From NCBI GenBank assembly GCA_963663765.2, contig CAXXUA010000004.1, forward strand, positions 1-64,000: DNA of 64,000 nucleotides, in the 5' to 3' direction. The DNA is from Candidatus Poribacteria bacterium (GTDB lineage: Bacteria; Poribacteria; WGA-4E; WGA-3G). Both the position numbers and the translations under genes were made by a program. Position 1 is the stretch's first letter; every line of letters begins with the position of its first letter. The notes under the pieces were generated by a model. It ran no database searches. It worked only from the letters and a program-made list of their open reading frames with translations, and was not told the origin of the DNA. Shown here piece after piece: positions 12,144 to 62,163 of this stretch.

Positions 12144-12429
12144 TACCATTTCTATAATTTGTTGTTACATTGGTCTGTTATCATGATAGTCGTTCTTTAG
12201 GACACAAACTGAAAGAAGATTAAAAATTGCTTTGGGTAATTCCCCTAATCCAGCCACGGCAGGCGTGCTTTGTAAGCGCGCTGTGTGTGGGGTTGACATA
12301 CCAGCGCGCTTACAAAGCACCAAATCAAGAAATCAACGGTATGAATGCCTTTAGGCATTCCCCTGGTATGAATGCTGTTTAGGCATTCCCCGCCTACCGT
12401 TGGGTGCGTAAGTCCTGTTAGAAATGGTA
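12144..12429. mobile_element. MITE family C (TIR TACC..., TAA TSD), composite, inserted in the pyrC stop codon
   Basis: Perfect 11-bp TIR TACCATTTCTA/TAGAAATGGTA; TAA at 12141-12143 and 12430-12432; contains a REP doublet, a hairpin insert and a family-A end (TGCGTAAGTCCTG). Confidence 0.85.
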
Positions 12430-13715
12430 TAACATGTAATACCATCTTTTATAGTCATTACTGGCCAACCTTTTAATTGCCAATCAGCAAAAGGAGAATT
12501 TCGACTTTTTGAAAACGATTTTTCCACATCATACTTTGCTGTCATTTTTGTATCAATCAATGTGACGTCTGCTACTGCGCCGATAGAAAGTGTCCCGCGA
12601 TCAATACCGGTAATTTCCGCTGGGATGCATGTCAATTTTGCTATTGCTTCTTTCAACGTTAGATGTCCAGCATCAACCAGGTGTGTGAGGACAAGAGGCA
12701 GACAAGTTTCAAGTCCGATAATCCCATTTGGTGCGTCCTTCAAACCGAGAGCTTTTTCTGATGGGGTATGCGGTGCATGGTCTGTTGCAATAGCATCTAT
12801 TGTACCGTCTTTCAGTCCTTCCAAGATAGCATCAATGTCTCGTTGAGTACGTAAAGGTGGATGCATTTTTGCATTTGTTCCCTGTTTTTCTACCTCTTCG
12901 TCTGTCAGGATCCAATGATGTGGACACACTTCTGCGGTGACGTTTACCCCTCGTTGTTTTCCAGATCGCACTAGATCAACTGCACCTGCTGTGCTGACAT
13001 GTAGAATATGTATGTGTCCTCCAGTCATTTCAGCGAGCATGATGTCGCGTGCGACAATGATGTCCTCAGCAGCATTTGGACTGCCAATGAGATTTAGTTT
13101 TCTTGATGTTTCACCGAGATTCATCACTGCTCCAGCGTTCAGGTTGTGTTCTTCACAATGAACCATTACTGGAAAATCGAGTTCTGCGCTTAATGTGAGT
13201 GCATCCCGCATGAGTGCTGAATTCATGACGGTTACACCATCGTCACTCACCCCGATAGCATTAGCATTGAGCATACCTTGAATATTTGTTAGTTCCTCAC
13301 CGGCGAGGTTTTTTGTAATACTGCCAACTGGATAGACATTCGTTTTAGGAGCAGCATGCTTTTCGGAATTACCTTTTGCTATGTTACATAAGTTTTTGAC
13401 ATTCTCAGGTGAGTCTGTTACCGGTGATGTATTTGCCATACAGACTACTGATGTGAAACCTCCAGCTGCTGCAGCTGCTGTTCCTGTTGCAATTGTCTCC
13501 TTATGTTCAAAACCGGGTTCCCTTAGATGGACATGTATGTCTATTAGTCCGGGGGTAACCGCCAAACTTGTAGCATCAATCTTGTTGCTAACATCAGTCG
13601 TCAAGTTTCTTCCGATCTGAGCGATTTTACCATCAATGATTAGAAGGTCGCCTACTTCGTCAACACTGTTAGCGGGATCAATGATATGTCCATTTTGGAT
13701 TAACACACTGTCCAT
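12351..13715 (-). CDS. pyrC: dihydroorotase (last 26 aa contributed by the inserted MITE)
   Basis: PGLIDIHVHLREPG, EVCPHH, IATDHAPH; position in the pyr operon. Confidence 0.95.
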   Translation of the reverse strand: MDSVLIQNGHIIDPANSVDEVGDLLIIDGKIAQIGRNLTTDVSNKIDATSLAVTPGLIDIHVHLREPGFEHKETIATGTAAAAAGGFTSVVCMANTSPVTDSPENVKNLCNIAKGNSEKHAAPKTNVYPVGSITKNLAGEELTNIQGMLNANAIGVSDDGVTVMNSALMRDALTLSAELDFPVMVHCEEHNLNAGAVMNLGETSRKLNLIGSPNAAEDIIVARDIMLAEMTGGHIHILHVSTAGAVDLVRSGKQRGVNVTAEVCPHHWILTDEEVEKQGTNAKMHPPLRTQRDIDAILEGLKDGTIDAIATDHAPHTPSEKALGLKDAPNGIIGLETCLPLVLTHLVDAGHLTLKEAIAKLTCIPAEITGIDRGTLSIGAVADVTLIDTKMTAKYDVEKSFSKSRNSPFADWQLKGWPVMTIKDGITCYTISNRTYAPNGRRGMPKQHSYQGNA

Positions 13716-13740
13716 TTTATTGACACTTTCCTATTAGGTG

Positions 13741-14295
13741 TTACTCTGAATCCGTTTCACATATAATTGCGGAATCGACACCGTGTTCCTCTTCTAATTG
13801 TACTTTAACGAATTCTTTTCGTGAAGTGGGTACATTTTTTCCGATATAATCAGCAGAAATAGGTAATTCACGGTGTCCTCTATCAATTAGAGCGGCCAAT
13901 TGTATTGCAGCGGGTCTCCCGAAATCAATGATAGCATCCATTGCGGCGCGAATTGTGCGACCAGTGTATAGTACCTCATCAACTAAGATAACCCACTTTC
14001 CGGTAACATCAAAAGGGATTTCAGTGCTGTTAACCTGTATTTGCGTTTCATGTAGGTTGATGTCGTCACGGTAGAGTGTGACATCTATTGCTCCGACAGG
14101 TACAGTGATGCTTTCAATCCGACCTAAGTTTGCAGCGATGCGGTGTGCGATAGTATCTCCACGGCTTTTGACACCGACCAATACCAGATTGTCAATATGT
14201 TTGTGATTTCGTTCCAAAATCTCGTGTGCGATTCTGATGAGTGCGCGGCGAATATCCTCCGCGTTCATGACTTGTGCTTTTTCATGCATTTTCAT
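13741..14295 (-). CDS. pyrR: pyrimidine operon attenuation protein / uracil phosphoribosyltransferase
   Basis: [47 protein letters not shown]; start placed at 14295 (14289 possible) rather than 14367. Confidence 0.95.
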
Positions 14296-14351
14296 GATTC
14301 TTATCCAATGATATAACTTAGATTCATGCTTAAGAATTCTATAGACAACAT

Positions 14352-14382
14352 AAAAAAACCTCCTCACTTAATGGTGAGAAGG
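14352..14382 (-). terminator. attenuator terminator in the pyrR leader
   Basis: Minus strand CCTTCTCAC-CATTAA-GTGAGGAGG followed by T7, upstream of pyrR. Confidence 0.8.
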
Positions 14383-14531
14383 ATCGGTTTTGCTAAAACT
14401 CTTGTATAACAGATATGATTTAAAAACAGAATTGATTTCGCAATAATGCCTGAGAAATCTTGCATAAATTGCAATTGTTTATATATAGTCAGTTTTCTGT
14501 GTAGACATTCTAACTTTTTGAAGTATAACAT

Positions 14532-14565
14532 CCTTTTTCCACCTCTCGGGATGGGATTAAAAAGA
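14532..14565 (-). promoter_or_regulatory. PyrR binding loop (anti-antiterminator)
   Basis: Minus strand CTTTTTAATCCCA-TCCCGAGAGG-TGGAAAAAG fits the PyrR site pattern UUUAA...UCCnGnGAGG...AAAG. Confidence 0.8.
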
Positions 14566-14601
14566 CATTCTGAACATGAGTCATTTAATTTCAATATAAT
14601 T

Positions 14602-14630
14602 ATTATATCATTATTAGAAAATAATTGCAA
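14602..14630 (-). promoter_or_regulatory. sigma-70 promoter of the pyr operon
   Basis: TTGCAA-17 nt-TATAAT with extended -10 TG, just upstream of the PyrR loop. Confidence 0.65.
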
Positions 14631-14664
14631 GTTTATTTTTTTAATGGAGTGTGTTATGTCTTAG

Positions 14665-14722
14665 GTGACAGAATCGCTGATTTCACGGATTCGCGGAGTG
14701 TGTACGGAATCGCGGATTTCGC
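14665..14722 (+). repeat. degenerate copy of the GGATT(A/T)C short-period repeat element
   Basis: Shares TGTACGGAATCGCGGATT and GCGGAGTG with the element at 37767-37934 (reverse complement). Confidence 0.55.
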
Positions 14723-14884
14723 AGCAAAGATTTCTACATTTGCATTTATTGCTTAGGATGTGGGTTTTCTGTTTCTATCGCGGTTTACATGGATTGCGAG
14801 GATAAGACTACTGCGATTGGATGTATTGCATGTAATTTGGGTTTGTTGTTAAGATGTAATCAACCCTCTGTAGCTGCGATATTC

Positions 14885-16750
14885 TTATATACGGAAGATT
14901 TCACCTAATTTTCCACCTAATACTCGTCCTGCAGCAAGTAGACATACTATTAGGATAAACATGCCAATCACACCAAGTGCACTTGCGATGTAGTCACCTT
15001 CTCCAAGCCGTTGTGATAGCACATAAATTGCTTTTGTGATGGGATAAAACTTTTTTTCTTGTGCTAAGATGAGACTGTCACTTACCTCAAGCATTGAAAA
15101 TGAAAATACAAGAATTGCTCCAGCAAGTATATTGGCAAAAACTAATGGCAAAGTGATTTTATAGAGTGTACGCAGCGGTGTTGCTCCCATGTTCTGTGAT
15201 GCTTCTTCATAAGTGATACTTGTCTGTTGGAAACCTGCATAAATGGATCGCAGCATATAGGGTAACCTACGCACTGAATAACTGACTATTAACAAGAAAG
15301 TTGGGTTTTTTCTGGGATCAATCAAGTTGATAAAGCTATCTGGAAAATATTTTAAGATTATTGCCGTAGATGAAAAACTGCCCATGTATCCGAAGGCGAT
15401 TGCAACACCTGGAAGTGCTAATGGTAACATTGCAATTGCATCTAACAGGTTTTGAAATGGAAGTCGTTTTCGTGTTAGTAGGTATGCTATTGCAACCCCG
15501 ATAATTAATGCCAGAATAGTGCTGAAAATACTATATTTTAGACTGTTGAGAATGCTTGGGAATGTAATATCATGGCTGAAAACATCAATATAGTGCTGAA
15601 AAGTTAAGGATTTTGGTAGTATGGTCAAATTCCATTCACTTGCATTTGGTGTTAGAGAATACAATATTACACTGATGTGCGGGAGGATAGCCATGAACGT
15701 CAATCCACAGATAAACAGATATATTACTGAACGCATTCCCCATTTTGTGTTCACTTCGCGCGAGGTGACATGTCCTCTTCCCAACATTTCATAGTGTTTG
15801 CCACCTGTCCATCGTTTTGATACATAAAATGCAAATGCTGTGAGAACGATGACAAGCACAACAAGTGCATATCCCATAGGATTCAAGCTGGAAGCAACAA
15901 CAAGGTTAAAGATTTCAACAGCAATTACCTGATTGTAGTTAAAAATTAGAGGCGTTCCAAGGTCAGTGAATGCCCAAATAAAAACGAGAATTGCTCCTGC
16001 GAAATATCCTGGCATCATTAGTGGTAGTGTAATTTTTCTGAATATTTGGAAGCGGGAAGCACCCAAGTTTTCTGCTGCTTCCTCTAAACTTGGATCAACA
16101 TTTGCTATCGCAGCGACAATGTTTAGATACATTATTGGGTATAGGTGCAAAGTTGACAGCATTACCACACCCCAAAATCCACCACCAAACCAGTCGATTG
16201 TATCGTTAATATCCATCAGATTGAGTTTTACCAGTAACATGTTGATACTTCCAAACTTTCCAAAGAACTTTGCCATACCCAATGCGCCAACGAAAGGTGG
16301 CATTATCATTGGTATCAGGATTATTGATCTAAACAGATTGCGTCCGGGGAAACGGTAACGTGTTAGGAAAAATGCAAGTGGTAGACTCACAATGCTTGTG
16401 AGAATAGTAACCATCGCACCGATTTTGAAACTATTGACGACCAATACTCGCTTATTTGGATCGGTCACCATAAGTTTAAAAAACGATAGGTCAAACTTAT
16501 TTTTTATCCAGAAAGCTTCTTTGAAAACATATAGGAGGGGATAGATGAGGAAAATGAGGAAGAAAAGAGCGATAACTCCGAGGATTAAAGTAGTAGCAGG
16601 TGTTAGATCATATTTTCGTCTGATTTTTTTGGTGAAGTTATACGATGAGTATTTCAACTTCGCCAAAGTTAAATCGTATTTTTGTCTAATTTTATCCAGT
16701 AGAGTTAGGTTATTTCGTGAAGTTTCCTCTTCCTCATGACGGTTGAACAT
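14885..16750 (-). CDS. iron(III)/thiamine-type ABC transporter permease (FbpB/ThiP-like)
   Basis: Two permease halves with EAA loops LEEAAENLGA and YEEASQNMGA. Confidence 0.9.
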   Translation of the reverse strand: MFNRHEEEETSRNNLTLLDKIRQKYDLTLAKLKYSSYNFTKKIRRKYDLTPATTLILGVIALFFLIFLIYPLLYVFKEAFWIKNKFDLSFFKLMVTDPNKRVLVVNSFKIGAMVTILTSIVSLPLAFFLTRYRFPGRNLFRSIILIPMIMPPFVGALGMAKFFGKFGSINMLLVKLNLMDINDTIDWFGGGFWGVVMLSTLHLYPIMYLNIVAAIANVDPSLEEAAENLGASRFQIFRKITLPLMMPGYFAGAILVFIWAFTDLGTPLIFNYNQVIAVEIFNLVVASSLNPMGYALVVLVIVLTAFAFYVSKRWTGGKHYEMLGRGHVTSREVNTKWGMRSVIYLFICGLTFMAILPHISVILYSLTPNASEWNLTILPKSLTFQHYIDVFSHDITFPSILNSLKYSIFSTILALIIGVAIAYLLTRKRLPFQNLLDAIAMLPLALPGVAIAFGYMGSFSSTAIILKYFPDSFINLIDPRKNPTFLLIVSYSVRRLPYMLRSIYAGFQQTSITYEEASQNMGATPLRTLYKITLPLVFANILAGAILVFSFSMLEVSDSLILAQEKKFYPITKAIYVLSQRLGEGDYIASALGVIGMFILIVCLLAAGRVLGGKLGEIFRI

Positions 16751-16779
16751 TTAATACTCCAAAGTAACCTGTGTATTCT

Positions 16780-16820
16780 GCGCGCTTACAGAGCGCGCCT
16801 ACCTTTTGTGCATAGTTCCT
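16780..16820 (-). repeat. solo REP (GCGCGCTTAC family) with a decayed family-A MITE end
   Basis: GCGCGCTTACAGAGCGCGCCTAC followed by CTTTTGTGCATAGTTCCT, resembling CGTTGTGTGCGTAAGTCCT. Confidence 0.6.
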
Positions 16821-16853
16821 AAACGTGCTGAAATCCTAAGTTGGGTTGTAAGA

Positions 16854-18095
16854 TCAGTCATTGGTGAGGTTAATAACGAAATAGGTAACAGCAATGGCAG
16901 TAGAAGAGATCGTGCTGATTAATCCCCATGGGATTTCAAATCGTTTGTGAGTCTCTAAAATGTCACCGGGATAAAGTAATGTTGTATCAGTGCCAGGTTT
17001 ATAGTGATGTATTGATGTTGTTCCATCTGTACGATGTAAATGAAATTTCTCACGGTTTGCTTCTTCTACAAAACCGCCTGCTATTGCTATTGCTTTCTGT
17101 AATGTTATGGGACCACGGACTTTATGTGCACCTGGTGTTTGAACATATCCCGTGACATATACTGGTTCAACTTTGAGAGCGTTTGGGACAAATAGTACAT
17201 CTCCATCAGATAATGTGTTTTTGTCGTCAGAGTTTTCATCAGATTTCCAAAATTGTTCAGTTACACTCAATTCAATTAGTGTACCGTCTCTGTCAACCTT
17301 TATTAATGAACTTAGGTTTGCTTCATCATTAGATCCGCCTGCTCTTGCCAATGCGTTTGCGATGCTTATATTATTCATGACAAAAAACTTTCCTGGATTC
17401 TTGACTTCACCTTGGATTTCAATGGTAGCCAAAGGTTGTACGTATACAAGGTCTCTTACATTTACTCTGATGTTATGATAGTGCTGGTCTATTGAAAGAT
17501 TATAGGTTTCATATAGGACAGGTCGTCTTTTTTCTTTAGGTAAATTTGGACCAGTAGATTCTGAGATTAATTTTGGGGTGTTAACTCGTATCAACTGAAC
17601 TTGTTGTGCATTTGCTTTCTCTGTCATCCCGCCAGCAAGGGCAATGGCGCGATATAGGTCAATGTCGGATTCTGGTGATATGATATAACGTCCGGGATTG
17701 TTAACTGCACCTGCAATATAAACAGAATGCTCTTGTGAAGCGACAGATACCAATACGATGGGATTATTTACAAGTTTCTGGTTCAACAAGTAATCACGAA
17801 TAATTTTATTTACATCTTCGGTGTTCTTTCCAGCAACTTGAAGGTCGCCTCCAAAATAACTAATTCTACCATCATTGCGTACTTGTACAGTGTGTGTATA
17901 TTCTGGTTGACCAATTACTGCTATGAGCAGCATGTCTCCTTGTCTGATACGGTAAACCGAATTTAATTCTCCCCAAACAGAATAAGTGCCACCAAAGAGT
18001 GTAGTACTGAAAATCAGCAATAGTAGCACAGTTAAAACTTGCAAGCGACACGAGGTTGTGTTTAAGTCTTGCAAGTTCCGTTTAATATAAAGCAT
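16854..18095 (-). CDS. polysaccharide export protein (Wza-like, Poly_export plus SLBB repeats)
   Basis: YRIRQGD...VRNDGRIS, three SLBB repeats (V.G.V..PG ... AIA.AGG), C-terminal helix. Confidence 0.85.
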   Translation of the reverse strand: MLYIKRNLQDLNTTSCRLQVLTVLLLLIFSTTLFGGTYSVWGELNSVYRIRQGDMLLIAVIGQPEYTHTVQVRNDGRISYFGGDLQVAGKNTEDVNKIIRDYLLNQKLVNNPIVLVSVASQEHSVYIAGAVNNPGRYIISPESDIDLYRAIALAGGMTEKANAQQVQLIRVNTPKLISESTGPNLPKEKRRPVLYETYNLSIDQHYHNIRVNVRDLVYVQPLATIEIQGEVKNPGKFFVMNNISIANALARAGGSNDEANLSSLIKVDRDGTLIELSVTEQFWKSDENSDDKNTLSDGDVLFVPNALKVEPVYVTGYVQTPGAHKVRGPITLQKAIAIAGGFVEEANREKFHLHRTDGTTSIHHYKPGTDTTLLYPGDILETHKRFEIPWGLISTISSTAIAVTYFVINLTND

Positions 18096-18124
18096 AATAT
18101 ATTTCTAATCAAGAATATAGCAAA

Positions 18125-18325
18125 CTATTGATGGTTGAAGAGCAGGAGTTGCTCCTTAAATAGAGTTGCATGTTTTTGTGTCCCAAACTGACTTCCCGGA
18201 TGCTTACGCCAATAGGGTTTGACGTAAGTACCATTCCTGCGTCGGTAGCCATGTACATAAATTTTTCCACTTGTATCGGTATGGGGTTTCATTTCATTGA
18301 ATAGGTAGAGTTGTGTCGCCTTCAT
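18125..18325 (-). CDS. small basic hypothetical protein
   Basis: YVHGYRRRNGTYVKPYWR motif; AAAGG RBS; fills the gap between co-oriented genes. Confidence 0.55.
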   Translation of the reverse strand: MKATQLYLFNEMKPHTDTSGKIYVHGYRRRNGTYVKPYWRKHPGSQFGTQKHATLFKEQLLLFNHQ

Positions 18326-18344
18326 GGCAGTCTACCTTTAGATC

Positions 18345-18692
18345 TTATTCTTCTTTAATTGAATCGTAATATACCTTGATGCTCTCTAAAGCTTGATTCA
18401 CACTATGTGTTGGTACTAGGAGGTCACCCCATTCAGATTTTCCTACGTTTCCCTTGACACCAGCAAATCCTTGCATTTCATTGGTACGTAAATAAACCAC
18501 AATTCCTTCATCCTCTAACACATTCTTGAGGATAAGTCCTGCGATTTCATTTGGGACAGATTCCACGACGAACCAGTCAACCTTATCTGGAACTTGTGCT
18601 GGGGTCAAACCTGGAAGAAGATCTTCATTACATTTTGAACATGTAAAGACATTTTCTTTGTAATCTGTGTTGCATTCTGGACAGAATGGCAT
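18345..18692 (-). CDS. DUF2007-like protein with N-terminal zinc ribbon
   Basis: MPFCPEC...CSKC, then NEIAGLILKNVLEDEGI; RBS GAGGAGG before the ATG at 18692. Confidence 0.7.
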   Translation of the reverse strand: MPFCPECNTDYKENVFTCSKCNEDLLPGLTPAQVPDKVDWFVVESVPNEIAGLILKNVLEDEGIVVYLRTNEMQGFAGVKGNVGKSEWGDLLVPTHSVNQALESIKVYYDSIKEE

Positions 18693-18819
18693 AGTCTTTT
18701 TCCTCCTCATAGATTGTGTATTTTTGTCAATTATACCACATCAGAAAACATTATGCAAATGACGGTGTAACTGATGCGTTGACTTTTTTAGGAAGGTATT
18801 ATGGTATTCAATGTAAAAT

Positions 18820-19510: not shown

Positions 19511-19554
19511 TGATACCCCTTCACTTTTGCATATTTCAAAATAGTGTATTTATG

Positions 19555-20102: not shown

Positions 20103-20111
20103 AAAGATAAC

Positions 20112-37934: not shown

Positions 37935-38319
37935 GGGTGTGTAAAGTTTTTGCACAGAGGTACAAACTTTTGTTCTCTTTAGTCCCGTAGGGACGCAATG
38001 TTTATAGATAGGTGTAATCACCCTCTCTTGAGTTCCGTAGGAACGACATAGAAGAATAAACATATCGTCCCTACGGGACTAAAGAACTGGGAAGGGTACT
38101 TGTTTTCTATAAACATATCGTCCCTACGGGACTGAAGAGTATGGTTGATATTAACAATATTTCCTTATATTGACACCTATGGGTCTCTGTGCCCGCAATC
38201 TCTCATTTAATCAGTTGCGGCGGGGTACAGAGACCCGGGGAATGCCTAAATGGCATTCATACCGTTGATTCCGCTCTACAATGGAGAATGTGCAGTTTGT
38301 GCAAAAACTTTACACACCC
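37935..38319. mobile_element. MITE family B (TIR GGGTGTGTAAAGTTTTTGCACA, 9-bp TSD)
   Basis: 22-bp perfect TIR; TSD TTCCGTACA at 37926-37934 and 38320-38328; interior holds REP clusters. Confidence 0.92.
37981..38133. repeat. cluster of four AGTCCCGTAGGGACG-type palindromic repeats (two forward, two reverse)
   Basis: Copies near 37981, 38030, 38066 and 38119. Confidence 0.8.
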
Positions 38320-52348: not shown

Positions 52349-53428
52349 TTATTTAAATTTGTTGTCAAAAACTAATTCTTGAATCTTATCTACAGCTTTT
52401 TCTGTATCTTGAAGTTGGTTATTCGGCGTTTTGCAGTTTAGTTCTTTGATTATTCGTTTTTCTAATTCCATAAGTTTGCACTGGTTTACAATTGAATGAT
52501 TTTCCATATATTCATAGATGCTATACCTTTTTGGTAGTTTCTTTCTTTTTTGAGTAAGCGATAGAACGATCACTTTCCTGCCACTACTTGCTGCTTCACA
52601 TACCATAGAAAAACTATCCGCACTGACAATCAGTAGTTCACTCATAGCAAGTATTGCTTGATATGGATCGTCAAGTTCAGAAGGTGTGTCAGGTTCAACA
52701 AAGAGCGGACACCACTCAGCATCTTCTAATTTTGACTTCAAGTAAGAATTTACTACTAAAGGAGTTCTGCGGGAGGTGGTCATCAAAAAATGAATTTGCA
52801 TTTTTTCAGCAACCGTTTTGCAAATATTCCACAGTGGTTCCGCATCTTCAATTGTAATAGTTTCGTGTTTGTCAGTTCCCCCAATTAATACACCTATACA
52901 TTTGTCCTTATGCAGATTCAAAGTTTGTAGAAGATCGTCTTTTACAGTATCAAGTGCATCCGGTGAAATTGGGTTTGGAACACCAATTGTTTGAATAATA
53001 TTTTCTCGTGTATATGCTTTATCGGAATAGAGTTTTGGTATGATAGCAAGGTCAAAATGTCGTATACCGATTGGTGATGGTCTTAGACAGGTGACCGATT
53101 TGGCATTAAGGGTTTTGCACAGAAGTAAGTTAATTGCTCCTAATGATGATCCTGTTGATAGAATTATGTCGATCCCTTTGACTTTTAATAATGTGTTGTA
53201 TGAATGGGGAGTCAGGCACCACTTAAACAATTTGTGGATAAAGCCGGAAGAAAATGATATTCCTTGAAAAACAGACATGAATAATCGTAATAAATTATCG
53301 CGCCATTTTGCTCGAAATTCAATATCAACCCATTCCACACTACAATCAGGTATTTTTTGTAGTATACCTAACGATTGTTTATAATGACCAGGTTTTTTGT
53401 CACTTAAGACAAGTATTGTGATACTCAC
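52349..53428 (-). CDS. ELM1/GtrOC1-family putative nucleoside-diphosphate-sugar protein, 5' end interrupted by an IS605 element
   Basis: ILVLSDKKPGHYKQS, FDLAIIP, GVLIGG, TTSRRTP, VSADSFSMVCEAASSG; native ATG appears to lie at 55193-55195. Confidence 0.8.
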   Translation of the reverse strand: MSITILVLSDKKPGHYKQSLGILQKIPDCSVEWVDIEFRAKWRDNLLRLFMSVFQGISFSSGFIHKLFKWCLTPHSYNTLLKVKGIDIILSTGSSLGAINLLLCKTLNAKSVTCLRPSPIGIRHFDLAIIPKLYSDKAYTRENIIQTIGVPNPISPDALDTVKDDLLQTLNLHKDKCIGVLIGGTDKHETITIEDAEPLWNICKTVAEKMQIHFLMTTSRRTPLVVNSYLKSKLEDAEWCPLFVEPDTPSELDDPYQAILAMSELLIVSADSFSMVCEAASSGRKVIVLSLTQKRKKLPKRYSIYEYMENHSIVNQCKLMELEKRIIKELNCKTPNNQLQDTEKAVDKIQELVFDNKFK

Positions 53429-53565
53429 GACGACTAAAGTTATGTGCTTCTTTGAAACTCATAACTCTCCTCTGTGTGATTCCTGCTTCCGTCTCTCGTG
53501 CCTCTATCCTGAACTGCGTGAGGTCTTATTCGGACTCCACAAGCGTTTATGCTCTCTGTCTATCC
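53418..53565 (-). ncRNA. TnpB omegaRNA scaffold, copy 2
   Basis: Runs from the tnpB stop to the right end; near-identical to 19950-20102. Confidence 0.7.
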
Positions 53566-54635
53566 GAAAGCGAGGGTTCTTAGGTTGATTGCAGCATTTA
53601 TGTCTCTATCTATTTGATAGTCGCATTGACTGCAATGATACGTTCTCTCTGATAGCGTCAAATCATCTTTCTTGTGTCTACAACGACTACAAGTTTTACT
53701 TGAAGCATAGAATTGCGGTGCTTGTAATACAGGTATTCCGAAAGCATCTGCTTTCGTTTTTAGCTTATTGAGAAACCCACCTAACGCTGAATCCGATAAT
53801 GCCTTCGCGAGTTTTCTATTCTTTAGCATGTTCGTTATTTTTAGTGTCTCAATGCTGATAGTAGATGCAAGGTTGACGATCTCTGTAGTTGCTTTGTGGT
53901 GTGCATCATTTCGGATACAAGCGATACGATAGTGGATACGTTCTAACTTGTGTTTCTGCTTGAACCAGTTTTTTGACTTGAAAACACGCCGACTCAACTT
54001 GCGTTGTTCCCTCTTTAGTTTTCTCTCATAGCGTTTCAGAGGTCTTGGATTCTCATATTTCGTGCCATTACTCAAGGTGGCAAGTGTGTTGATGCCTAGA
54101 TCTATACCGATAACAGGGTGCGTTGAATTGTCAACGACTTCGGTGTCCTCTGTTTCTACAGTGATAGATATAAACCAACGATGTGCTGTCCTTGAAATCG
54201 TCACGCTGGTAATCTTCCCTACAAAACGCAATGCTTGACGCATTTTGACCCAACCAACCTTAGGCAACCGGACCTTCTTGCCTTCAACTTTCACAGATTG
54301 TACGTCTGTTGTCCATGTGTCCCGAATCCCACGCTTTTTGAATCGAGGAAACCTCGCACGTTTGCTAACCCAATTCGTAATCGCTTGACCCAAATTCTTG
54401 ATCGCATACAACGCAGCTCTTTGGTCTTGTGAACGTGTCCACTCATAACGCTTTTTCGCTTTGTTGAAGTTGTTATTAAGGGTGCGCCACGACTGGAAGT
54501 TATCATTATCTAATCCTACATTAAATCTGACAACGGTTGATTATACGCAAAACGAGCATAACCACATTGTTGGGAAAACCATGTGCGTTGTTTGTTGTTC
54601 GGATTCAATGTAATCTTGTGTGTTTTGTAGGGCAT
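53560..54635 (-). pseudogene. tnpB: RNA-guided endonuclease TnpB with one frameshift near 54523
   Basis: MPYKTHKITLNPNNKQ...ARFAYN; one base missing in GAT-TT-AAT; then RuvC GIDLG, SIETL and DRDINAAINL plus zinc finger CSRC/CSQC. Confidence 0.9.
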
Positions 54636-54716
54636 ACCTGACTCCTGATAAGATGCTGACCCCCTCGTCAAAGGTGTGGCAGGTGTTGACGCACCTACCA
54701 CAGAGTCAGTCTTATT

Positions 54717-54746
54717 ATTATACCACAACTTTAGGGAAAATATCAA
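54717..54746 (-). promoter_or_regulatory. sigma-70 promoter for tnpB
   Basis: TTGATA-18 nt-TATAAT with TG extension. Confidence 0.6.
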
Positions 54747-54795
54747 GCGTTTTTTGACCCGAGGGTGGGTAAAGTTTTTGTAGAAACCCTATTAT

Positions 54796-55001
54796 TATAG
54801 TGGATTTTAGAATTATTTTTTGCACTATCAGGTGTAGGAGGGAACTCCGATTCCCGACTATCAAGGCGTTCAGTCGCGATTCGGAGATCGAAATCAAGTA
54901 ATCAACGGTATGAATACCTTATGGTATTCCCCGGGTATGAATGCCTATTGGCATTCCCCGCCTACAGAAAAAGTGTAAACTTAATTGTATATTTCACTAT
55001 A
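54796..55001. mobile_element. MITE family D (TATAGTG... ends, TA-flanked), nested in the family-B copy
   Basis: TATAGTGGATTTTAGAATTA ... TAATTGTATATTTCACTATA; contains a REP doublet at 54834-54965. Confidence 0.65.
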
Positions 55002-55059
55002 AAAGAAGTATCTAAAGTTTCTATCAAAGTTTGCTTCACGTAAGGGAACTGTGGACATC

Positions 55060-55122
55060 GTAGGGGCGAGGTTTCCTCGCCTGCGTAATACCTTTGCTCG
55101 GGCAGGGAGTCCCCGCCCCTAC
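55060..55122. repeat. REP doublet (GTAGGGGCG family)
   Basis: GTAGGGGCGAGGTTTCCTCGCC ... GGGCAGGGAGTCCCCGCCCCTAC. Confidence 0.75.
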
Positions 55123-55259
55123 ACACAGTAACCAAAACTTTACACACCCTTGACCCGAAGCTAAAGGCTTGGGATTGTCATTTAATTCCCTTCATCTGTT
55201 TTTTCGGACTAATATGGATATTGATTACTACATATCTTGAATTGAGGGTTGCAAATTAT

Positions 55260-55382
55260 CAGGACTTACGCAGTTTTCTTGATTTAATCATAAATTATGA
55301 CGAAAATGATGCCGTTATCAGCGTTTTTATGGGTTTCCGGCGCGCTTACAAAGCACGCCTACCGTTGTGTGCGTAAGTCCTG
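55260..55382 (-). mobile_element. MITE family A, second copy
   Basis: Perfect 13-bp TIR CAGGACTTACGCA; TSD ATTAT at 55255-55259 and 55383-55387. Confidence 0.93.
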
Positions 55383-56126
55383 ATTATATTCGATCAGTTC
55401 TGTAATACCTTCATCATCTTCTATTCTTACAATGCCAATATTTGGAACAAACCAAATCAACTTAGTATCAATAACTGTTTCCTCATTTGATAAAACTAAA
55501 TGAGTTATATCTGTTTCATATTGTATCTGAAATGCATTCTCAAATGTTCCTGCAGATGTATGAATAACATTTTGATCAAGCACTTTACAATGAACGTTAA
55601 TATGGACATCAAACGCAAACTGAAGAAGAACAAGGTCCTGCAAAATGAGGTTACCGGTGATATTAGTATTTAATGCATCCCATTGAGAATTCAGTGTTAA
55701 AGGAGTATGCAAAAAAAGGAGTTCAGGGTACAACTCTGTATCAGAATTCACACTTATTTCTAATCCTGTGAATTCATCCTCAACAACTTTTGGCAGTCCA
55801 TTTTGAAGATAATTATTAATTCTTTCATCTACTCTGAAAAAAACCTGATTCTGAGTAACACGAAAAGAGGAAGGGATAAGAATATCCAATTCGTTACCAG
55901 TCATTTCTGGTATAAAATCAATTTTCTGAAATAAGATGTTGTTTGTAGTTATATCATCTGCGACTGACCACGTCCATAGCAACTCATCAGGAGTTTGATA
56001 GACCCATCTCGTTCCAACTGCATCGGGGAAGTAGTTTGGTTTAAATTCAGTAGGTTCAGGATCCTTATCAGAACTGCATGCAACAAACATTGTAATGCAG
56101 TATATCGTTAAAAGAAAAAACCTCAT
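55359..56126 (-). CDS. hypothetical lipoprotein
   Basis: Lipobox FVAC; YFP..VGTRWVY and T.AGTF...WFVPNIGIV motifs; last 7 aa come from the MITE. Confidence 0.75.
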   Translation of the reverse strand: MRFFLLTIYCITMFVACSSDKDPEPTEFKPNYFPDAVGTRWVYQTPDELLWTWSVADDITTNNILFQKIDFIPEMTGNELDILIPSSFRVTQNQVFFRVDERINNYLQNGLPKVVEDEFTGLEISVNSDTELYPELLFLHTPLTLNSQWDALNTNITGNLILQDLVLLQFAFDVHINVHCKVLDQNVIHTSAGTFENAFQIQYETDITHLVLSNEETVIDTKLIWFVPNIGIVRIEDDEGITELIEYNQDLRTQR

Positions 56127-56182
56127 TTTATGCCTTGATGAATTGAGATTATTATAGGAATGCTATGACGGTGAACAAGTGA

Positions 56183-56213
56183 TTATAGGCGCGGGTTGAG
56201 ACGCGCCTATAAT
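56183..56213. terminator. intergenic hairpin
   Basis: ATTATAGGCGCG-GGTTGAGA-CGCGCCTATAAT just downstream of the redoxin gene. Confidence 0.55.
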
Positions 56214-56223
56214 TGGCAATATA

Positions 56224-57549
56224 CTATTCTGCTGATTCTTCCTTCAAAGCTTCAGCAACCAATTTCTCTAAATTACTCCTTGCATTATTTGAGATCAGTT
56301 TACCCTCTTTGTCTATGAGCCACACTGTCGGAATCCCAAAAATACCATACTTTCGTGATACAGGACTATTCCAACCTTTACCGCTATAGACTTGTCTCCA
56401 AGCAATATCGTTCTTTTTGAGATATTCCCTGAGTTTAGTTTCATCAGAATCAAGACTAATACCAACGATATCAAACCCTTTGTCTTTGTAGGTATCATAT
56501 ACCTTTTTAACTTTAGGCATGTCTGCGATGCAGGGACCACACCAAGTCGCCCAGAAATCAACTAAGAGAACTTTACCGCGATATGCTTCAATGGATATCG
56601 GTTTTCCTTCAAGATCTGTTGCTTCAAAATCGGGAACCATTTTGCCAAGAAACGCCAACCCAGGAACATACTTTTTACGGTATTCTAAAGCCAATTCATC
56701 GTTACCACGTTGCTTATGAATACTCTCAAGCCTTTGTAGGACAAAACGATTTTGGGGTTCATGTTTTTCAAGTTCTTGAAATAGTTGTAGTTCTTCATCA
56801 AACCGATTCAATGCTTTAAGCATATCTCCTAACACGGCACCATGATAATAGTTCTTAGGATCCATCTGTGATTTGAATCGCTTCATCAAGTTCTCAGCAT
56901 CTTCCATGCGTTCTGCTTTCATATAGAGTTGATGAAGCGTAGCATAGAGTCTATAAACCCGTTGAATATCGGTCTTTTTCTTTAATACCTTATCCAATGC
57001 TTGAATTGCAGGTTCAACACCACCATATACTTTTTCAAGTGAATTCTGCCATGAATATGGTGCGCGATACACTTTGTTTTCAAAACTCAGACTTAACATT
57101 GAATAAGAGGGGTTATTATTTTCATTATGATGTATACAACGTACAAGAGGCGTTACATCACCTAACAAATCACGTGCACTCATGACTGAATTCCGCAATT
57201 GTGGTGCTAACTGATAGTCATAACTCACAGGTTTATTTGGATCTTTTGTGAGTGGATGTAAGGTTTTTCCTCCATTCTTGTCTGCAGGACACAACAGAAC
57301 TTTCTCGTCTGCTAAGTATTTTGGAACAAGGTCTGATAACCATTTAGGATAATCACCATGTTCCTTATGGTAGGCTTGAATTGCTTTGCCTACTGTTTCC
57401 AGATTGTGTGTACAAATCTCTATGTTCTTCTTTTTCATGTTCTTTTTTTCTACTGGATCAACGTCTGAACTTTTATCAGAATCGTCTTCCGCATATACAG
57501 AAGGAATCATCAAACACAACAGAATTCCAATGGTTAGAATGACTTTCAT
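56224..57549 (-). CDS. secreted TlpA-family redoxin with TPR-like and extra N-terminal domains
   Basis: Signal peptide; PDFEATDLEG, VDFWATWCGPC, GIPTVWLIDKEG. Confidence 0.85.
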   Translation of the reverse strand: MKVILTIGILLCLMIPSVYAEDDSDKSSDVDPVEKKNMKKKNIEICTHNLETVGKAIQAYHKEHGDYPKWLSDLVPKYLADEKVLLCPADKNGGKTLHPLTKDPNKPVSYDYQLAPQLRNSVMSARDLLGDVTPLVRCIHHNENNNPSYSMLSLSFENKVYRAPYSWQNSLEKVYGGVEPAIQALDKVLKKKTDIQRVYRLYATLHQLYMKAERMEDAENLMKRFKSQMDPKNYYHGAVLGDMLKALNRFDEELQLFQELEKHEPQNRFVLQRLESIHKQRGNDELALEYRKKYVPGLAFLGKMVPDFEATDLEGKPISIEAYRGKVLLVDFWATWCGPCIADMPKVKKVYDTYKDKGFDIVGISLDSDETKLREYLKKNDIAWRQVYSGKGWNSPVSRKYGIFGIPTVWLIDKEGKLISNNARSNLEKLVAEALKEESAE

Positions 57550-57660
57550 TTTTATCTCCTTGTTGAGTTAATTGAATATTTTATTGTTAACGTTAGTTTT
57601 TTATAGTCAAATTTATATAATTATGTTCGGTGATGAAAACGCACCTACCAGAGTTTTTGG

Positions 57661-59004
57661 TTATAGTAATAGTTCACGAACATAAACTGCGATAAAGAAT
57701 ACTGCGAAATAGTGGACGAGAGGATTCACCTCTTTCCTACGTCCAGTGACAAGCTTTAAAAATGACATAGAAATAAAACCGAATGCGATTCCTTCTGTAA
57801 TACTGAAAGCAAGAGGCATCATTAATACAGTCAAAGCAGCGGGTATTGCTTCAGTGAAATCTTCCCAATTTATGTTGATAAGGTCTTTAAGCATCAACCC
57901 ACCCACAACAACTAATGCGGGACCAATTATAGGATAAAGTGGAATTGGACTTCCTTGTTGTATAAATCCACCCCCAACAATTTTTGCTAAAGGTGTAAAA
58001 AACATTGCACACAACATGAGCAGACCTGTAACAATTGCAGTCAATCCTGTTCGTCCCCCCTCAGCAATGCCAGAAGCACTTTCAATATAACACGTAACTG
58101 TTGAGGTGCCAAGACATGCCCCACCTACGGAACCAACTGCATCTGACAAAAGTGCTTGTCTGCCTTTTGATAATTTTCCATCCTCCATCAAGTCTGCCTC
58201 ATAACCAGTAGCAGTTAGTGTGCCGATGCTATCAAACATATCCACTGCAAAGAAGAAAAATATATAAGGTATAAGTTCCATCAACTTTGAAGGACTTGGG
58301 AACCGTAATTTTAGAAAAGTAGGTTCGATTGAGGAAGGCATAGAAACAATACCCTCAAATTTTGCAATTCCAAAAATAAGTGCGACAATTCCAGTTGCAA
58401 GTATCCCCATCAACATAGCACCCTTCACCCGGTGTGCCATCAATGTAATTATTACTAACAATCCGAAAATTGAGACCAAGACAGGTTTAGATTGGATATT
58501 TCCAAGTTTTACAAATGTATCCGGATCTGCAGTGATAATCCCACACATCCGTAAACCGATAAACGCGATAAAAACGCCAATTCCTACAGCAATAGCGTTT
58601 TGGAGTGAAGATGGCAGTGCATTCATAACTGCAGCACGTAAACCGACGAAGGAAAGAATGACAAACAGCATTCCCGATATGAAAACAATACCTAAAGCGA
58701 ATTGCCAGTCAAGACCAAGTCCACGTTCTTTTGATACAATCTCATAAACAAAATATGTATTTATTCCCATACCCGGTGCAAGTGCAACCGGATAGTTCGC
58801 AAGAAATGCCATCAAAAAAGTTGCAAAAGCACTTGAGACACATGTTGCAACCAATACAGCATCTGGATCCATACCTGCTTGACCCAGAAAATAAGGTTGT
58901 ACAAAGATAATATATGAAAGTGTCATAAAGGTTGTACAACCTGCGACAATCTCTCTTCGTATACTTGTCCCGTGTTCTTTTAAACGAAATAATTTTTCTA
59001 ACAC
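57661..59004 (-). CDS. NCS2/AzgA-family purine permease
   Basis: EIVAGCTTFMTLSYI, ALAPGMG, DMFDSIGT, YIESASGIAEGGRTGLTA. Confidence 0.93.
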   Translation of the reverse strand: MLEKLFRLKEHGTSIRREIVAGCTTFMTLSYIIFVQPYFLGQAGMDPDAVLVATCVSSAFATFLMAFLANYPVALAPGMGINTYFVYEIVSKERGLGLDWQFALGIVFISGMLFVILSFVGLRAAVMNALPSSLQNAIAVGIGVFIAFIGLRMCGIITADPDTFVKLGNIQSKPVLVSIFGLLVIITLMAHRVKGAMLMGILATGIVALIFGIAKFEGIVSMPSSIEPTFLKLRFPSPSKLMELIPYIFFFFAVDMFDSIGTLTATGYEADLMEDGKLSKGRQALLSDAVGSVGGACLGTSTVTCYIESASGIAEGGRTGLTAIVTGLLMLCAMFFTPLAKIVGGGFIQQGSPIPLYPIIGPALVVVGGLMLKDLININWEDFTEAIPAALTVLMMPLAFSITEGIAFGFISMSFLKLVTGRRKEVNPLVHYFAVFFIAVYVRELLL

Positions 59005-59166
59005 AATTCCCCCTAAAATATGAATCGCTAATTACAATTAACAATCAATCATGTCTTGAAAATACACATATTATCCAAATACTCTATCAAGTAACTAGGA
59101 ATTTAAAACCTACATTAGTATATTTCTATTCATAGATATAACCCAGATTAGCATGCTTGTCAAGTA

Positions 59167-60795
59167 CTACTTGTCTAAAACAATATGTACTTCCGCATTC
59201 GCACCCTCTTCACCAACAAATAGATTTGCGGTTATCGGTCCAAGTGACTCCAATGGAAATAGATTATCTTGGATTTGCTGCATTAATTGAGCATCCAGTT
59301 TTATACCAGAAAATGATGCAAGAATCGTAACTAATGGGATGAACCTTTTTATTTCAGGTACTAACAGTTGCGGTTGAACATAAGTCTGAATACCATTAGA
59401 CGCAAATGTTATGTCTTCTAAATTAGGAGAGTCTCCAGAATTCGTATCAAGTACAGTTTTTAACCCATCCAATGTCGTACTTAAAAATAGATCGTTATTC
59501 ACAATTGCATAAGCACCAGTATACGACATTAGGATATTTAAACGCATTCGAAGAGGATGTAAAGAAATTCCTTTATAGTTTTGCACTTCAAGGAACTCAA
59601 TAGGCCTTCCCGCAACAGAAAATTTTGTGTTATTAAGTTTTTTTATGTTTTCATCAAGAGATTTTATGTTTTGAATTGGGGTATGTATCACTAACGAAGG
59701 TAATTTTGACATTTCACCTTCATTACGAGAAACTATAGCAGCAGTCATTTCGGGTTTAAAAATGTCATAAAAACTTACATCATCTGATTCAATTTCAATT
59801 GTTAATAGAGAAGTTAATACTTGCCAAAACTGAGTCCAATTATGCTGTGGATAGAATGCAACTAAAGCGGTATGTTTAGGAATAAATGTTGGTGTGGTTC
59901 GCGGTTTTGAATGTGGGTTTTTTGGTGATTCGTGATTTCCAAACTGATATTTTGAAACTACCGCACCTTCTTCATACCGATTCTCAAATGTCCAAAACTT
60001 TCCTTCGTTAATCATAGAAGATAAATGACCAGAAATATTATCATTTTCATCTGCTAGATGTTTTAACAACACAGAAAAGCGTGGAAGGTCCACATATCCA
60101 GTGTTTGTATTGTCATTATAACTTTTCTGTATATGTTTTTTAATGGAATGTTTAGTAAGAAAACCTTCATTTTTATCATTATATATGTCTATTACTTCTG
60201 CTAAAAGCAAGGGATTAAGGGTTAACACTCCTATTTTTCCGATAAAGGTATAACTAAAATCAAGTGGATATCCAATTATGGTATTGATAGTTAGACCGTT
60301 GTGTTCTGTCTTAATTCGTTTATAGTTAGGGTTTATTAGATCTGTCGCTGTGATTGCTTCAATGGCAAGCTTTTCTGGTCCACCTACTTCTGTAATAAGT
60401 AGAAATGAGAACTCATTTTCACGTTGATAGAGTGCAAGAATTACTTCCTTACCAAAATGACCTTTAACTGCTCGCATATCAAATCTTCCACCCATTTCGT
60501 ATTCCCAGAGCATTTTCTGATATACAATCTGACGCCACCAAAGTTTAGATCCTATTTGCTTGAATATAGGCATCTGTTTGACCTGCTTACCAAATTCACT
60601 CTCATTAAATGCCTTAACAAGTCCATCCAAATCCTTCAATGTCAAATAACATATTGGAGATTCTGGGAGTAATGTGATAAGACTATGTTCAGGTTTCCAA
60701 AGTGAAGTTTGATGATAAACAACAGTTAACAATAGAATGATACCAACCAATACAATTAGTAGGGTGAAGATGAATCTTTTCTTTGACTTTTGCAT
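59167..60795 (-). CDS. membrane-anchored hypothetical protein (DUF3352-like)
   Basis: N-terminal TM followed by LLPE; beta-rich repeats; family call tentative. Confidence 0.5.
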   Translation of the reverse strand: MQKSKKRFIFTLLIVLVGIILLLTVVYHQTSLWKPEHSLITLLPESPICYLTLKDLDGLVKAFNESEFGKQVKQMPIFKQIGSKLWWRQIVYQKMLWEYEMGGRFDMRAVKGHFGKEVILALYQRENEFSFLLITEVGGPEKLAIEAITATDLINPNYKRIKTEHNGLTINTIIGYPLDFSYTFIGKIGVLTLNPLLLAEVIDIYNDKNEGFLTKHSIKKHIQKSYNDNTNTGYVDLPRFSVLLKHLADENDNISGHLSSMINEGKFWTFENRYEEGAVVSKYQFGNHESPKNPHSKPRTTPTFIPKHTALVAFYPQHNWTQFWQVLTSLLTIEIESDDVSFYDIFKPEMTAAIVSRNEGEMSKLPSLVIHTPIQNIKSLDENIKKLNNTKFSVAGRPIEFLEVQNYKGISLHPLRMRLNILMSYTGAYAIVNNDLFLSTTLDGLKTVLDTNSGDSPNLEDITFASNGIQTYVQPQLLVPEIKRFIPLVTILASFSGIKLDAQLMQQIQDNLFPLESLGPITANLFVGEEGANAEVHIVLDK

Positions 60796-61020
60796 AATGG
60801 TAGAAAACAGCTTTTGTGCGTCAATTTGCTATCATCGTTTAGTATAACATTATTATGGATATAATACAATAGGACTTATTTTAAGGCCAGGGTTATTTAG
60901 ATTTCAATTTATTGATATTATTTTGCTGTTTCGTTAATTTTATGGGATACCATCTTGTCTAGTTCTTTAGTCCCGTATGAAGATTAATTTATGAATAGGG
61001 TAATAAATATTTTTCAGATG

Positions 61021-62163
61021 GTAGGTGTGCTTTGTAAGCGCGCTCTTGGGATTTGATGTGCCAGCGCGCTTACAATGCACGCCTGCGGTTGGGGGTCAGG
61101 TGGGTGGCGCGCCTACAAAGCACGGCTGCAGTTGGGTGGCAGTTGGGGGGCGCGCGGACAAAGCACGCCTGCAGTTGGGGGTAGTTGGCAGGCTCGCTTA
61201 CAAAGCACGCCTGCAGTTAGGGGCAGTTGGGGGGCGCGCTTACAAAGCACGCCTGCAGTTAGGGGGCAGTTGGGGGGCGCGCTTACAAAGCACGGCTGCG
61301 GTTGGGGGGCAGATGGGAGGCGCCGCTTACAAAGCACGCCTGCGGTTGGGGGGCAGTTGGCAGGCGCGCTTACAAAGCACGCCTGCGGTTGGGGGGCAGG
61401 TGGGTGGCGCGCCTACAAAGCACGCCTGCAGTTGGGGGGCGCGCGGACAAAGCACGCCTGCAGTTGGGGGGAGTTGGCAGGCGCGCTTACAAAGCACGCC
61501 TGCAGTTAGGGGGCAGTTGGGGGGCGCGCTTACAAAGCACGCCTGCGGTTGGGGGGCAGATGTGAGGCGCGCTTACAAAGCACGCCTGCGGTTGGGGGGC
61601 AGTTGGCAGGCGCACTTACAAAGCACGCCTGCAGTTGGGGGTAGTTGGCAGGCTCGCTTACAAAGCACGCCTGCAGTTAGGGGCAGTTGGGGGGCGCGCT
61701 TACAAAGCACGCCTGCAGTTAGGGGGCAGTTGGGGGGCGCGCTTACAAAGCACGGCTGCGGTTGGGGGGCAGATGGGAGGCGCCGCTTACAAAGCACGCC
61801 TGCGGTTGGGGGGCAGTTGGCAGGCGCGCTTACAAAGCACGCCTGCAGTTGGGGGCAGTTGGCAGGCGCGCTTACAAAGCACGCCTGCAGTTAGGGGGCA
61901 GTTGGGGGGCGCGCTTACAAAGCACGCCTGCAGTTGGGGGGAGTTGGGGGGCGCGCGGACAAAGCACGCCTGCAGTTGGGGGGAGTTGGGGGGCGCGCGG
62001 ACAAAGCACGCCTGCAGTTGGGGGGCAGATGGGAGGCGCGCTTACAAAGCACGCCTGCAGTTGGGGGAGTTGGGGGGCGCGCTTACAAAGCGGTAAATCA
62101 AGAAATCAACGGTATGAATGCCATTTAGGCATTCCCCGCCTACCGTTGGGTGCGCAAGTCCTG
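61021..62163 (+). repeat. REP-derived G-rich tandem array (24 full units plus 1 partial, mostly 42-44 bp) inside a REP/MITE composite
   Basis: Unit GCGCGCTTACAAAGCACGCCTGC(A/G)GTT plus G-rich linker from 61064 to 62091; inverted REP at 61021; hairpin insert at 62095-62137; family-A end at 62151-62163. Confidence 0.95.

Follow-up and report, generated by a model that had tools for sequence, protein, structure and literature searches.

Leader-hairpin modules in REP-like repeats of a poribacterial sponge symbiont: a probable family of non-autonomous mini-elements inserted at C|G

We wondered how a hairpin of a few tens of bases, without a gene of its own, comes to lie inside other repeats. The question is raised by a 64,000-nt stretch of Candidatus Poribacteria DNA (the window, meaning the whole stretch analyzed, C4:1-64000 of the source genome G000). 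Here, four repetitive extragenic palindrome (REP) units are each interrupted by the same module, a leader followed by a hairpin. G000 is the genome of a sponge symbiont (6.35 Mb, 41% G+C, 15 contigs, 97.8% complete). A first-pass annotation of the window had described the four copies, two of them with a duplicated hairpin unit, as well as an uninterrupted REP at 55340-55362, and all of these are present and read as described. It had proposed either a minimal non-autonomous element or an excision footprint. The notion of a minimal non-autonomous insert within REP-like repeats holds: the module is non-coding and empty sites exist. New relative to that description are the scale and clade-wide spread of the module, the constant leader as its defining feature, the sister modules, and the probable multiplication of most copies along with their hosts. 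On balance, we consider it somewhat probable that the modules form a family of non-autonomous leader-hairpin mini-elements, rarely and precisely inserted at C|G in REP-like hairpins and amplified mainly with their hosts.

The module follows a simple formula: (C)AAATCAA[G] repeated zero to five times, then AAATCAAC, then a G-closed hairpin and a final C. The hairpin has a 7-bp stem and a 4-6-nt loop, and the whole module measures about 35 bases. In the dominant type (type A) the arms read GGTATGAATGCC and GGCATTCCCC. Folding of the hairpin by itself gives -6.9 kcal/mol (z = -3.3 versus shuffled sequence). Hairpin units in G000 were counted using a tolerant pattern, and 151 sampled genomes of the phylum were searched using an exact pattern. 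Adjoining units were grouped into arrays, which form the base for all G000 counts. We found 642 units in 518 arrays, 416 with one unit, 88 with two and 10 with three; single arrays hold up to seven. Each array has one to six leader octamers. A AAATCAAC-type octamer directly precedes 484 of the 518 arrays, the last octamer being exactly AAATCAAC in 434, and the 34 leaderless arrays mostly come right after another hairpin. AAATCAAC occurs 1279 times in G000 versus 272-748 times for shuffled octamers, and is then followed by GGTATGAAT in 466 cases.

The evidence for insertion comes from filled and empty sites, which we tabulated for the 272 arrays having an empty counterpart. Inserts are precise, 34-36 nt long and placed at C|G in at least six families of REP-like hairpins, without duplication or inverted ends. 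The earlier statement that the element has no terminal inverted repeats, no clear target-site duplication and no open reading frame (ORF) is borne out. Preceded by a C, the insert itself opens with C and closes with C ahead of a G, so that its exact placement could be shifted by one base. Left flanks end in GCAC, GCGC, ATCG, CGGC, GGCG, TTTC or CTAC and the common part is C|G only; the sites are found variously in stems, in loops and at the feet of stems, in differing GC-rich hairpins. The family that we call REP-A reads GCGCGCTTACAAAGCAC|GCCTAC, or GTAGGC then hairpin on the other strand. Its site 1 is empty in 230 copies and filled by exactly CAAATCAAC plus one unit (36 nt) in 36, while in the remaining filled copies the leader is longer or the units are more numerous, the insertion point being unchanged. 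Site 2 (CCAGCGC|GCTTAC) is empty in 287 copies and filled in 32. Genome-wide we counted seven empty and seven filled copies of the GTAGGGCG|GGGTCTCTGT family, which hosts the window copy at 38237, and two empty and 21 filled copies of the REP family that hosts the copy at 54891. The loop of a sister module, type B, also serves as host and offers 55 empty sites. Paralogs with both flanks (each at least 80 nt) directly joined and no module between them exist in the genome for 113 arrays. The best paralogs are repeats of 680-800 bp, 97-100% identical, whose sole difference is the 36-nt insert at GCGC|GTAT. Examples are filled C5:1790119 versus empty C13:76198 and C5:1097814 (98.5-100% identity over about 680 bp), and filled C3 580835 versus empty C3:42342 (97-99% over 800 bp). 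In other species the same module occupies host repeats outside the common contexts of G000, for example CCCCCTAAA|..|CCCCTTATCAGGGGG.

The window copies, their hosts and the empty sites near them are as follows.

12259..12397, strand not assigned: host of the 12322 copy, an inverted REP-A pair (a REPIN, two REPs forming one hairpin) with 12259-12281 on the minus strand and 12304-12320 plus 12392-12397 on the plus strand
12321..12391, plus strand: module array; C, leader AAATCAAG-AAATCAAC at 12322-12337, two hairpin units at 12338-12363 and 12365-12391
37982-37994 (minus strand), 38067-38079 (plus strand) and 38120-38132 (plus strand): three empty target sites of the type-B sister module, GTCCCTAC|GGGAC
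38219..38279, minus strand: host REP of the 38237 copy, family GTAG(A/G)GCG|GGGTCTCTGT...CCCCGCC, split 8 nt after its GTAG start
38237..38271, minus strand: module; leader GAATCAAC at 38264-38271, one unit at 38237-38263
54834..54965, plus strand: host REP pair of the 54891 copy, GTAGGAGGGAACTCCGATTCCCGAC ... GTCGCGATTCGGAGATCG|GCCTAC
54891..54959, plus strand: module array; leader AAATCAAG-TAATCAAC, variant unit at 54907-54932, standard unit at 54934-54959
55340..55362, plus strand: empty REP-A, GCGCGCTTACAAAGCAC|GCCTAC
61021..62093, plus strand: tandem REP-A array with a period of about 42 nt
62094..62137, plus strand: module in the last REP-A unit of this tandem array; leader AAATCAAG-AAATCAAC, one unit at 62111-62137

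The REPIN at 12259..12397 folds as DNA at -40.7 kcal/mol (z = -7.2), and the module splits its right arm between ...AAAGCAC and GCCTAC; the 71-nt form of this array was found again at the same REP-A site elsewhere in G000. The first unit of the 54891 array carries a compensated stem, GAATACC/GGTATTC. Its host REP pair belongs to the family that flanks the single clear gene for a REP-associated tyrosine transposase (RAYT) in G000, and lies within a repeat of about 390 bp (54763-55153) adjoining an insertion sequence (IS) with a TnpB gene at 53418-54763. In the tandem REP-A array, a 23-mer matched 24 times on the plus strand and once on the minus strand, and an extra unit at 62077-62093 was matched by a 17-nt left-half probe only. 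A search of the window with the bare 12-mer and two mismatches gave seven matches versus 4.4 expected, which is not significant. Two ORFs (61025-61894 and 61635-62096) traverse the tandem REP-A array and are probably not genes. A dihydroorotase-like ORF (12351-13715, minus strand) extends about 25 codons beyond the end seen in relatives (...WPVMTIREGIQS, stop). The extra codons (12351-12440) read through the flank of REP-A into the module and terminate within the loop of its first hairpin unit; the native end of this gene seems to have been replaced through repeat insertion.

In three window copies the CTAC of the host ends 6 nt past the module, and in the fourth it lies 8 nt beyond the leader. 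The first-pass annotation had placed every copy at a short distance from such a REP end, and genome-wide this was mostly borne out. A CTAC up to 20 nt downstream or a GTAG up to 20 nt upstream accompanies 276 of the 518 arrays versus 640 of 5000 random intergenic positions; the other 242 arrays have no such motif at this distance in the tested orientation. CTAC ends exactly 6 nt past the module in 191 arrays and 13 nt past it in 37, and GTAG starts 8 nt before the leader in 25.

What is constant in the module is not the same for its two parts. Within type A the stem varies in a compensated manner, as in GAATGCT/AGCATTC and GAACGCC/GGCGTTC besides the pair in the window. Scanning all sequence 3' of AATCAAC for a 7-bp stem, in G000 and in the fetched loci, yielded seven further arm pairs, all of them complementary. 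As the arm pairs differ yet stay complementary, the leader is kept as sequence and the hairpin is kept as shape. The type-B 'host' is in turn an inserted module that shares the leader: GTCCCTAC, then CAAATCAAC, GCCAAATGC, GCGTAT and GGCATTTGTC as the insert, then GGGAC. Its sites number 602 empty (GTCCCTACGGGAC) and about 126 filled genome-wide, and the loop of about half of the filled copies houses the main module. Of two further types, the third (arms GTCAGAAGC and GGCTTCTGTC) lies at AAATC|GGGG and the fourth (arms GCCGAATGC and GGCATTCGGC) lies between tandem main units at CCCC|GGG, both likewise at C|G. Since these sister modules share the leader, we regard them as a family of leader-hairpin mini-elements, not as one element.

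Further small elements are associated with the modules. One with inverted ends GAAGATTAAT...ATTAATCTTC is lodged in the AT-rich loop of module hairpins, with half-modules on either side and thus as a further level of nesting (C4(-) offset 100767, C5(+) 1040674 and C11(-) 176982, all strand-scanned offsets). A recurring motif, GGGGTTGAAAACCCC(TCCCACAAG), whose hairpin is GGGGTT/AACCCC, is found next to one sister module and beside several REPs (C8:17306, C5:547360, and C3 contexts at 208-260 nt). The leader contains repeated ATCAA, the core of the integration host factor (IHF) consensus WATCAANNNNTTR, which would suit the nucleoid-protein reading discussed below. The complementary leader (CTTGATTT repeats, GTTGATTT) may resemble the IS91 target and CTTG|ATA, where Rep proteins of the pC194/phiX type nick, and GAATGC in the stem corresponds to a type IIS restriction site. 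We also considered an integron attC site, and the leader does not match the RYYYAAC box. A CRISPR assignment was rejected too, the 27- and 36-nt arrays having no spacers.

The module is not confined to one genome. Its exact form is present in 83 of the 151 sampled genomes of the phylum, with 0-282 copies per genome and the highest number in G000. By genus, it was found in 36 of 37 genomes of g1, in 45 of 57 of g2 and as one copy in one of 20 of g9, and in no other sampled genus. Stems and leader are identical between species and the preferred loops differ. The pattern read backwards gave no match in any of the 151 genomes. A scan of one genome per prokaryotic species with the exact pattern returned at least 91 stretches; among the 80 matches listed, Candidatus or uncultured Poribacteria account for 79 by title, the remaining one being an 'uncultured bacterium'. 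No match was obtained in a viral collection. An adapter or assembly artefact, which the first-pass annotation had named as one finding that would overturn its reading, is excluded because the exact module occurs in these 83 genomes, several of them single-contig chromosomes; the matches listed from the scan come from separately named metagenome-assembled genomes.

How, then, might 518 arrays have arisen? According to the reading we favor, new sites would be rare and the work of a trans-acting activity, which would read the constant single-stranded leader and the shape of the hairpin, probably with the DNA in single-stranded form. Multiplication of composite host repeats, slippage and homologous exchange among host copies would then account for most of the copy number. 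Three periods are seen among tandem arrays: 27 nt (unit alone), 36 nt (leader plus unit; C6:362511-362727 and C5:1377877-1378199) and about 80 nt (REP-A plus module; C6:322738-323300). Most copies have probably spread with their hosts in this manner, by multiplication of composite repeats, tandem slippage or exchange between copies. Jumps between host families would be much rarer than descent within a family, and independent insertions in G000 likely number tens, not hundreds.

Several observations weigh against precise insertion by such an activity, and the first of them concern the hosts and flanks. Loop variants are specific to the host, with ATTTA at REP-A site 1, TTTT at REP-A site 2, ATTAA in type B and TATT in the RAYT-type REP, so that most copies probably descend within one host family. 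Filled copies at REP-A site 2 share flank markers, and 29 of the 32 read GCC next, not GCT. In the RAYT-type REP the empty form is GGAGATCG|CTCCTAC versus a filled GGAGATCG[module]GCCTAC. A long palindrome (GTAGGAGCGACC...GGTCGCTCCTAC) likewise reads GACCGGGAGGTCGC when empty versus GACCGGC[module]GGGTCGC when filled, GGGAGGT having become GGC..GGGT. Such flank changes beside the insert fit exchange or lineage markers as well as they fit insertion.

They also feed an explanation that requires no dedicated enzyme. Template switching, microhomology joins and gene conversion would move a hairpin cassette among REPs, with slippage building the arrays. Donor-like bases do accompany the insert, the right flank becoming GCCTAC or GGGT, with which the next unit begins. 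Clustering of flank contexts gave 99 groups, 74 with a single copy, and some contexts are chimeric, fusing the left half of one host REP with the right half of another. The three tandem periods and the host-specific loops fit as well, and the number of modules tracks no transposase tested. Moreover, the CAACGGTA of a module in REP-A is an exact inverted copy of TACCGTTG in the host, 6 nt past the insert, so that module and flank together form a long quasi-palindrome. On the complementary strand, 191 of the 518 arrays read GTAGGC directly followed by the module hairpin, resembling a REP head plus hairpin. Fold-back copying within REP-A would yield the inverted copy and could have given birth to the module; the quasi-palindrome would also fit a cassette that replaces the REP's own hairpin beside its head. 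However, the 7-nt leader and the stems are exact across two genera and the sister arms change in a compensated manner under a fixed leader, which points to a recognizing factor and not to accident. The main junctions are exact at the level of single bases, homology there not exceeding 1 nt, and the CAC|GCC site holds differing module variants, with ATTTA and CGTAT loops. We therefore judge an origin entirely without a dedicated enzyme to be unlikely.

A second group of observations that weighs against the favored reading comes from the search for the enzyme: transposase searches of G000 and relatives found none for the module. G000 has 40 TnpB matches in several families and six Y1 transposase matches, and the 2.5 kb to either side of the five Y1 genes examined contain neither module nor REP-A. 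Of the 101 genomes of the family, 84 have RAYT homologues. Of 30 RAYT loci, all are dense in GTAGG/CCTAC and one has modules. Genomes G031, G017 and G021 carry 74, 57 and 51 exact modules without a Pfam Y1_Tnp match, two of them being assembled in 1 and 4 contigs. Conversely, Y1-rich genomes (3-21 matches) hold 0-3 modules; one with three Y1 matches has no modules and one with 21 has three. A link to an HUH or RAYT enzyme thus found no support, as modules lie away from Y1 genes and their counts do not track Y1. The RAYT-type Y1 transposase of G000 itself (C4:621598-622074, HUH motif in ...MPDHIHAV...) lies between dense REP arrays of the GTAGGAGGGAACTCCGATTCCCGAC family, a classic REPtron. Searches for IS91/Y2 (PF04986) and Rep_1 (PF01446) gave no matches, with control searches equally silent.

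The first-pass annotation had also pointed to the IS110 family and to an excision footprint. IS110-type DEDD transposases (PF01548) gave no match in the 97.8%-complete G000, the control search being positive in six of 14 reference genomes, which speaks against that link. More generally, the module might be a footprint or solo end of a REP-targeting IS of the IS110, IS3 or IS200/IS605 type. A TnpB IS does lie 130 bp from the 54891 copy, and the left end of a 401-aa TnpB IS starts TTATCAAGAATCA, an 8+3-base likeness to the leader that we rate as weak. However, the TnpB IS of the window stops at 54763, and the repeat that contains the module is a distinct one. The end hairpins of an IS605 (TnpA plus TnpB), of the 401-aa TnpB IS and of the window TnpB IS all differ from the module, which also weighs against the reading we favor. 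A longer copy enclosing a recombinase or any other gene was looked for in G000 by flank clustering and by a search for split half-modules, and none was found. Half-modules with a distant other half proved to be degenerate units, nested sister hairpins or cases of a small element in the loop, none with an ORF. Imprecise excision would not leave 518 near-identical footprints with precise empty counterparts. The footprint reading is therefore close to refuted and we give it very little credence. The window IS itself (53418-54763, minus strand) is of the TnpB-only kind, with OrfB_IS605 and Cas12f1-like TNB domains. BLAST revealed four more copies in the genome at 92-94% identity over about 1310-1350 bp and one at 84%; the repeat of about 390 bp at 54763-55153 abuts it as a separate unit.

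The mobile reading can be taken further than we would take it. The modules might be hyperparasites of REPINs and the smallest transposable units yet seen: a 34-36-nt single-strand cassette made of a 7-nt leader and a shape-only hairpin, moved by a non-Y1 enzyme into CG without duplication, beside the GTAG heads of other selfish repeats. If this were true, the module would replace the hairpin of the host repeat and might hijack the host's own mobilization. We consider this doubtful.

Strand usage and strain comparison complete the points that weigh against insertion by a dedicated activity. The G-rich strand holds 302 of 511 scored arrays in G000 (59%), a noisy skew that empty REP-A shows as well (58%). 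The single-contig genome G039 has 58 forward and 56 reverse modules, without a replichore switch among 100 listed sites. A replication-strand bias thus seems at most weak, and the strong lagging-strand signature of IS200/IS605 is not evident in these two genomes. Strain-level gain or loss of the module was not shown by the orthologous spacer of relatives, by contigs from public runs or by a metagenome scan. The scan, with a unique 26-mer beside the 12322 copy, gave no match. In the nearest species carA is 82-87% identical, and their carA-pyrC spacer measures tens of bases versus about 320 in G000; the whole repeat block is thus lineage-specific, and the comparison is uninformative on the module alone. 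Contigs of public runs (four of six matching runs, compared with 54770-64000) end at repeats, one spanning 55354-60960 and the next beginning at 62125-62136. The joints 54897>54934 and 54890>54962 in run contigs are not assignable to this locus, their depth being hundreds of times that of single-copy sequence.

We also asked whether the module could serve the host. It could be a motif under selection, either a site for a nucleoid protein as in the BIME-1 (bacterial interspersed mosaic element) and RIP (repetitive IHF-binding palindromic) repeats or a structural or RNA element, with spread being secondary. Conservation of the sequence between species and the compensated stem changes agree with such a role, and so does an almost purely intergenic placement: 484 of the 518 arrays are intergenic according to a crude ORF model, by which all intergenic and genic calls in G000 were made. 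Between co-directional genes, however, 169 arrays lie in sense and 143 in antisense, no bias towards gene ends is seen, and the split over tandem, divergent and convergent spacers is proportional to spacer length. These figures speak against a role as a terminator or any other function at the transcript level. Related genomes range from 0 to 282 copies, and the one orthologous spacer compared, carA-pyrC, is too short in matched relatives for the block of about 320 bp in G000. No Rfam family matched at gathering scores across the window, and at E <= 1 the region 12200-12470 gave just weak microRNA-like matches to the REPIN hairpin. Selection for a host function is thus an improbable main cause.

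Together with REP, REPIN and miniature inverted-repeat transposable element (MITE) layers, the modules occupy much of the intergenic DNA, which makes up about 22% of G000 by the same ORF model. Practical effects are broken short-read contigs, false ORFs running through arrays and at least one real gene that is lengthened. The range of 0 to 282 copies within one bacterial family makes the question of the enzyme open to phylogenetic profiling. As a separate observation, short palindromes are avoided in G000: GGCGCC occurs 72 times, GCTAGC 37 times and CGATCG 340 times versus about 3100 expected, and GCGATCGC occurs 29 times versus about 194, which suggests many restriction systems.

How do the modules relate to systems already known? 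The Poribacteria literature on repeats, REPs or palindromic elements yielded no description of leader-hairpin modules. From classical MITEs the module differs in lacking terminal inverted repeats and, as judged from filled and empty pairs, a target-site duplication. IS1397 and the IS110-family IS621 also insert into REPs, but they bear genes and measure at least 1 kb, and the module was not found in any long form. With IS200/IS605 and the palindrome-associated transposable elements (PATEs) the module shares the absence of inverted ends and of target duplication, hairpin-based ends and precise empty sites. Unlike these, it has one hairpin rather than a left and a right end, and no conserved 4-5-nt target precedes the insert. 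In contrast to PATEs, its ends are unlike those of the resident IS605 and TnpB elements, and genomes without a Pfam Y1_Tnp match carry it.

BIMEs are mosaics of REPs with extra motifs. Like REPs, BIMEs and REPINs (for the latter see PMC3116915), the modules are extragenic, imperfectly palindromic, present in hundreds of copies and part of mosaics with extra motifs. The module has no GTAG or CTAC of its own, any GTAG belonging to the host. It is moreover an insert within REPs that does not flank RAYT genes, and its number is independent of Y1 genes.

The small dispersed repeats (SDRs) of cyanobacteria offer another comparison. SDR4-6 of Nostocaceae were reportedly described by Elhai and colleagues (2008, Genome Res 18:1484; cited in PMC5861425, PMC4390886 and PMC3116915). 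Nesting and a spread confined to one clade are features that such repeats share with the module. We know of no enzyme for the cyanobacterial SDRs, and to our knowledge the movement of repeats of tens of bases has long been an open question. Module and SDRs have in common that they are tens of nucleotides long, dispersed, non-coding and of high copy number, and that their insertion point within a short GC-rich palindrome is fixed and exact. As stated in PMC4390886, SDR5 is precisely inserted between bases 3 and 4 of GCGATCGC (HIP1). Reportedly, HIP1-enriched cyanobacterial genomes outside Nostocaceae yielded no SDR-like repeats (PMC4390886, PMC5861425). The differences lie in the phylum, in the composition of the module from a constant leader and a structure-conserved hairpin, and in its REP-like hairpin targets; HIP1 itself is rare in G000 with its 29 copies. 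Compared by description only, the modules would thus provide a second, unrelated case of tiny mobile-like repeats beside the SDRs, one with a clear grammar of constant leader, covarying arms and insertion at C|G. By analogy, the cyanobacterial SDRs and the extra motifs of BIME mosaics appear to be the closest relatives in kind of the poribacterial module.

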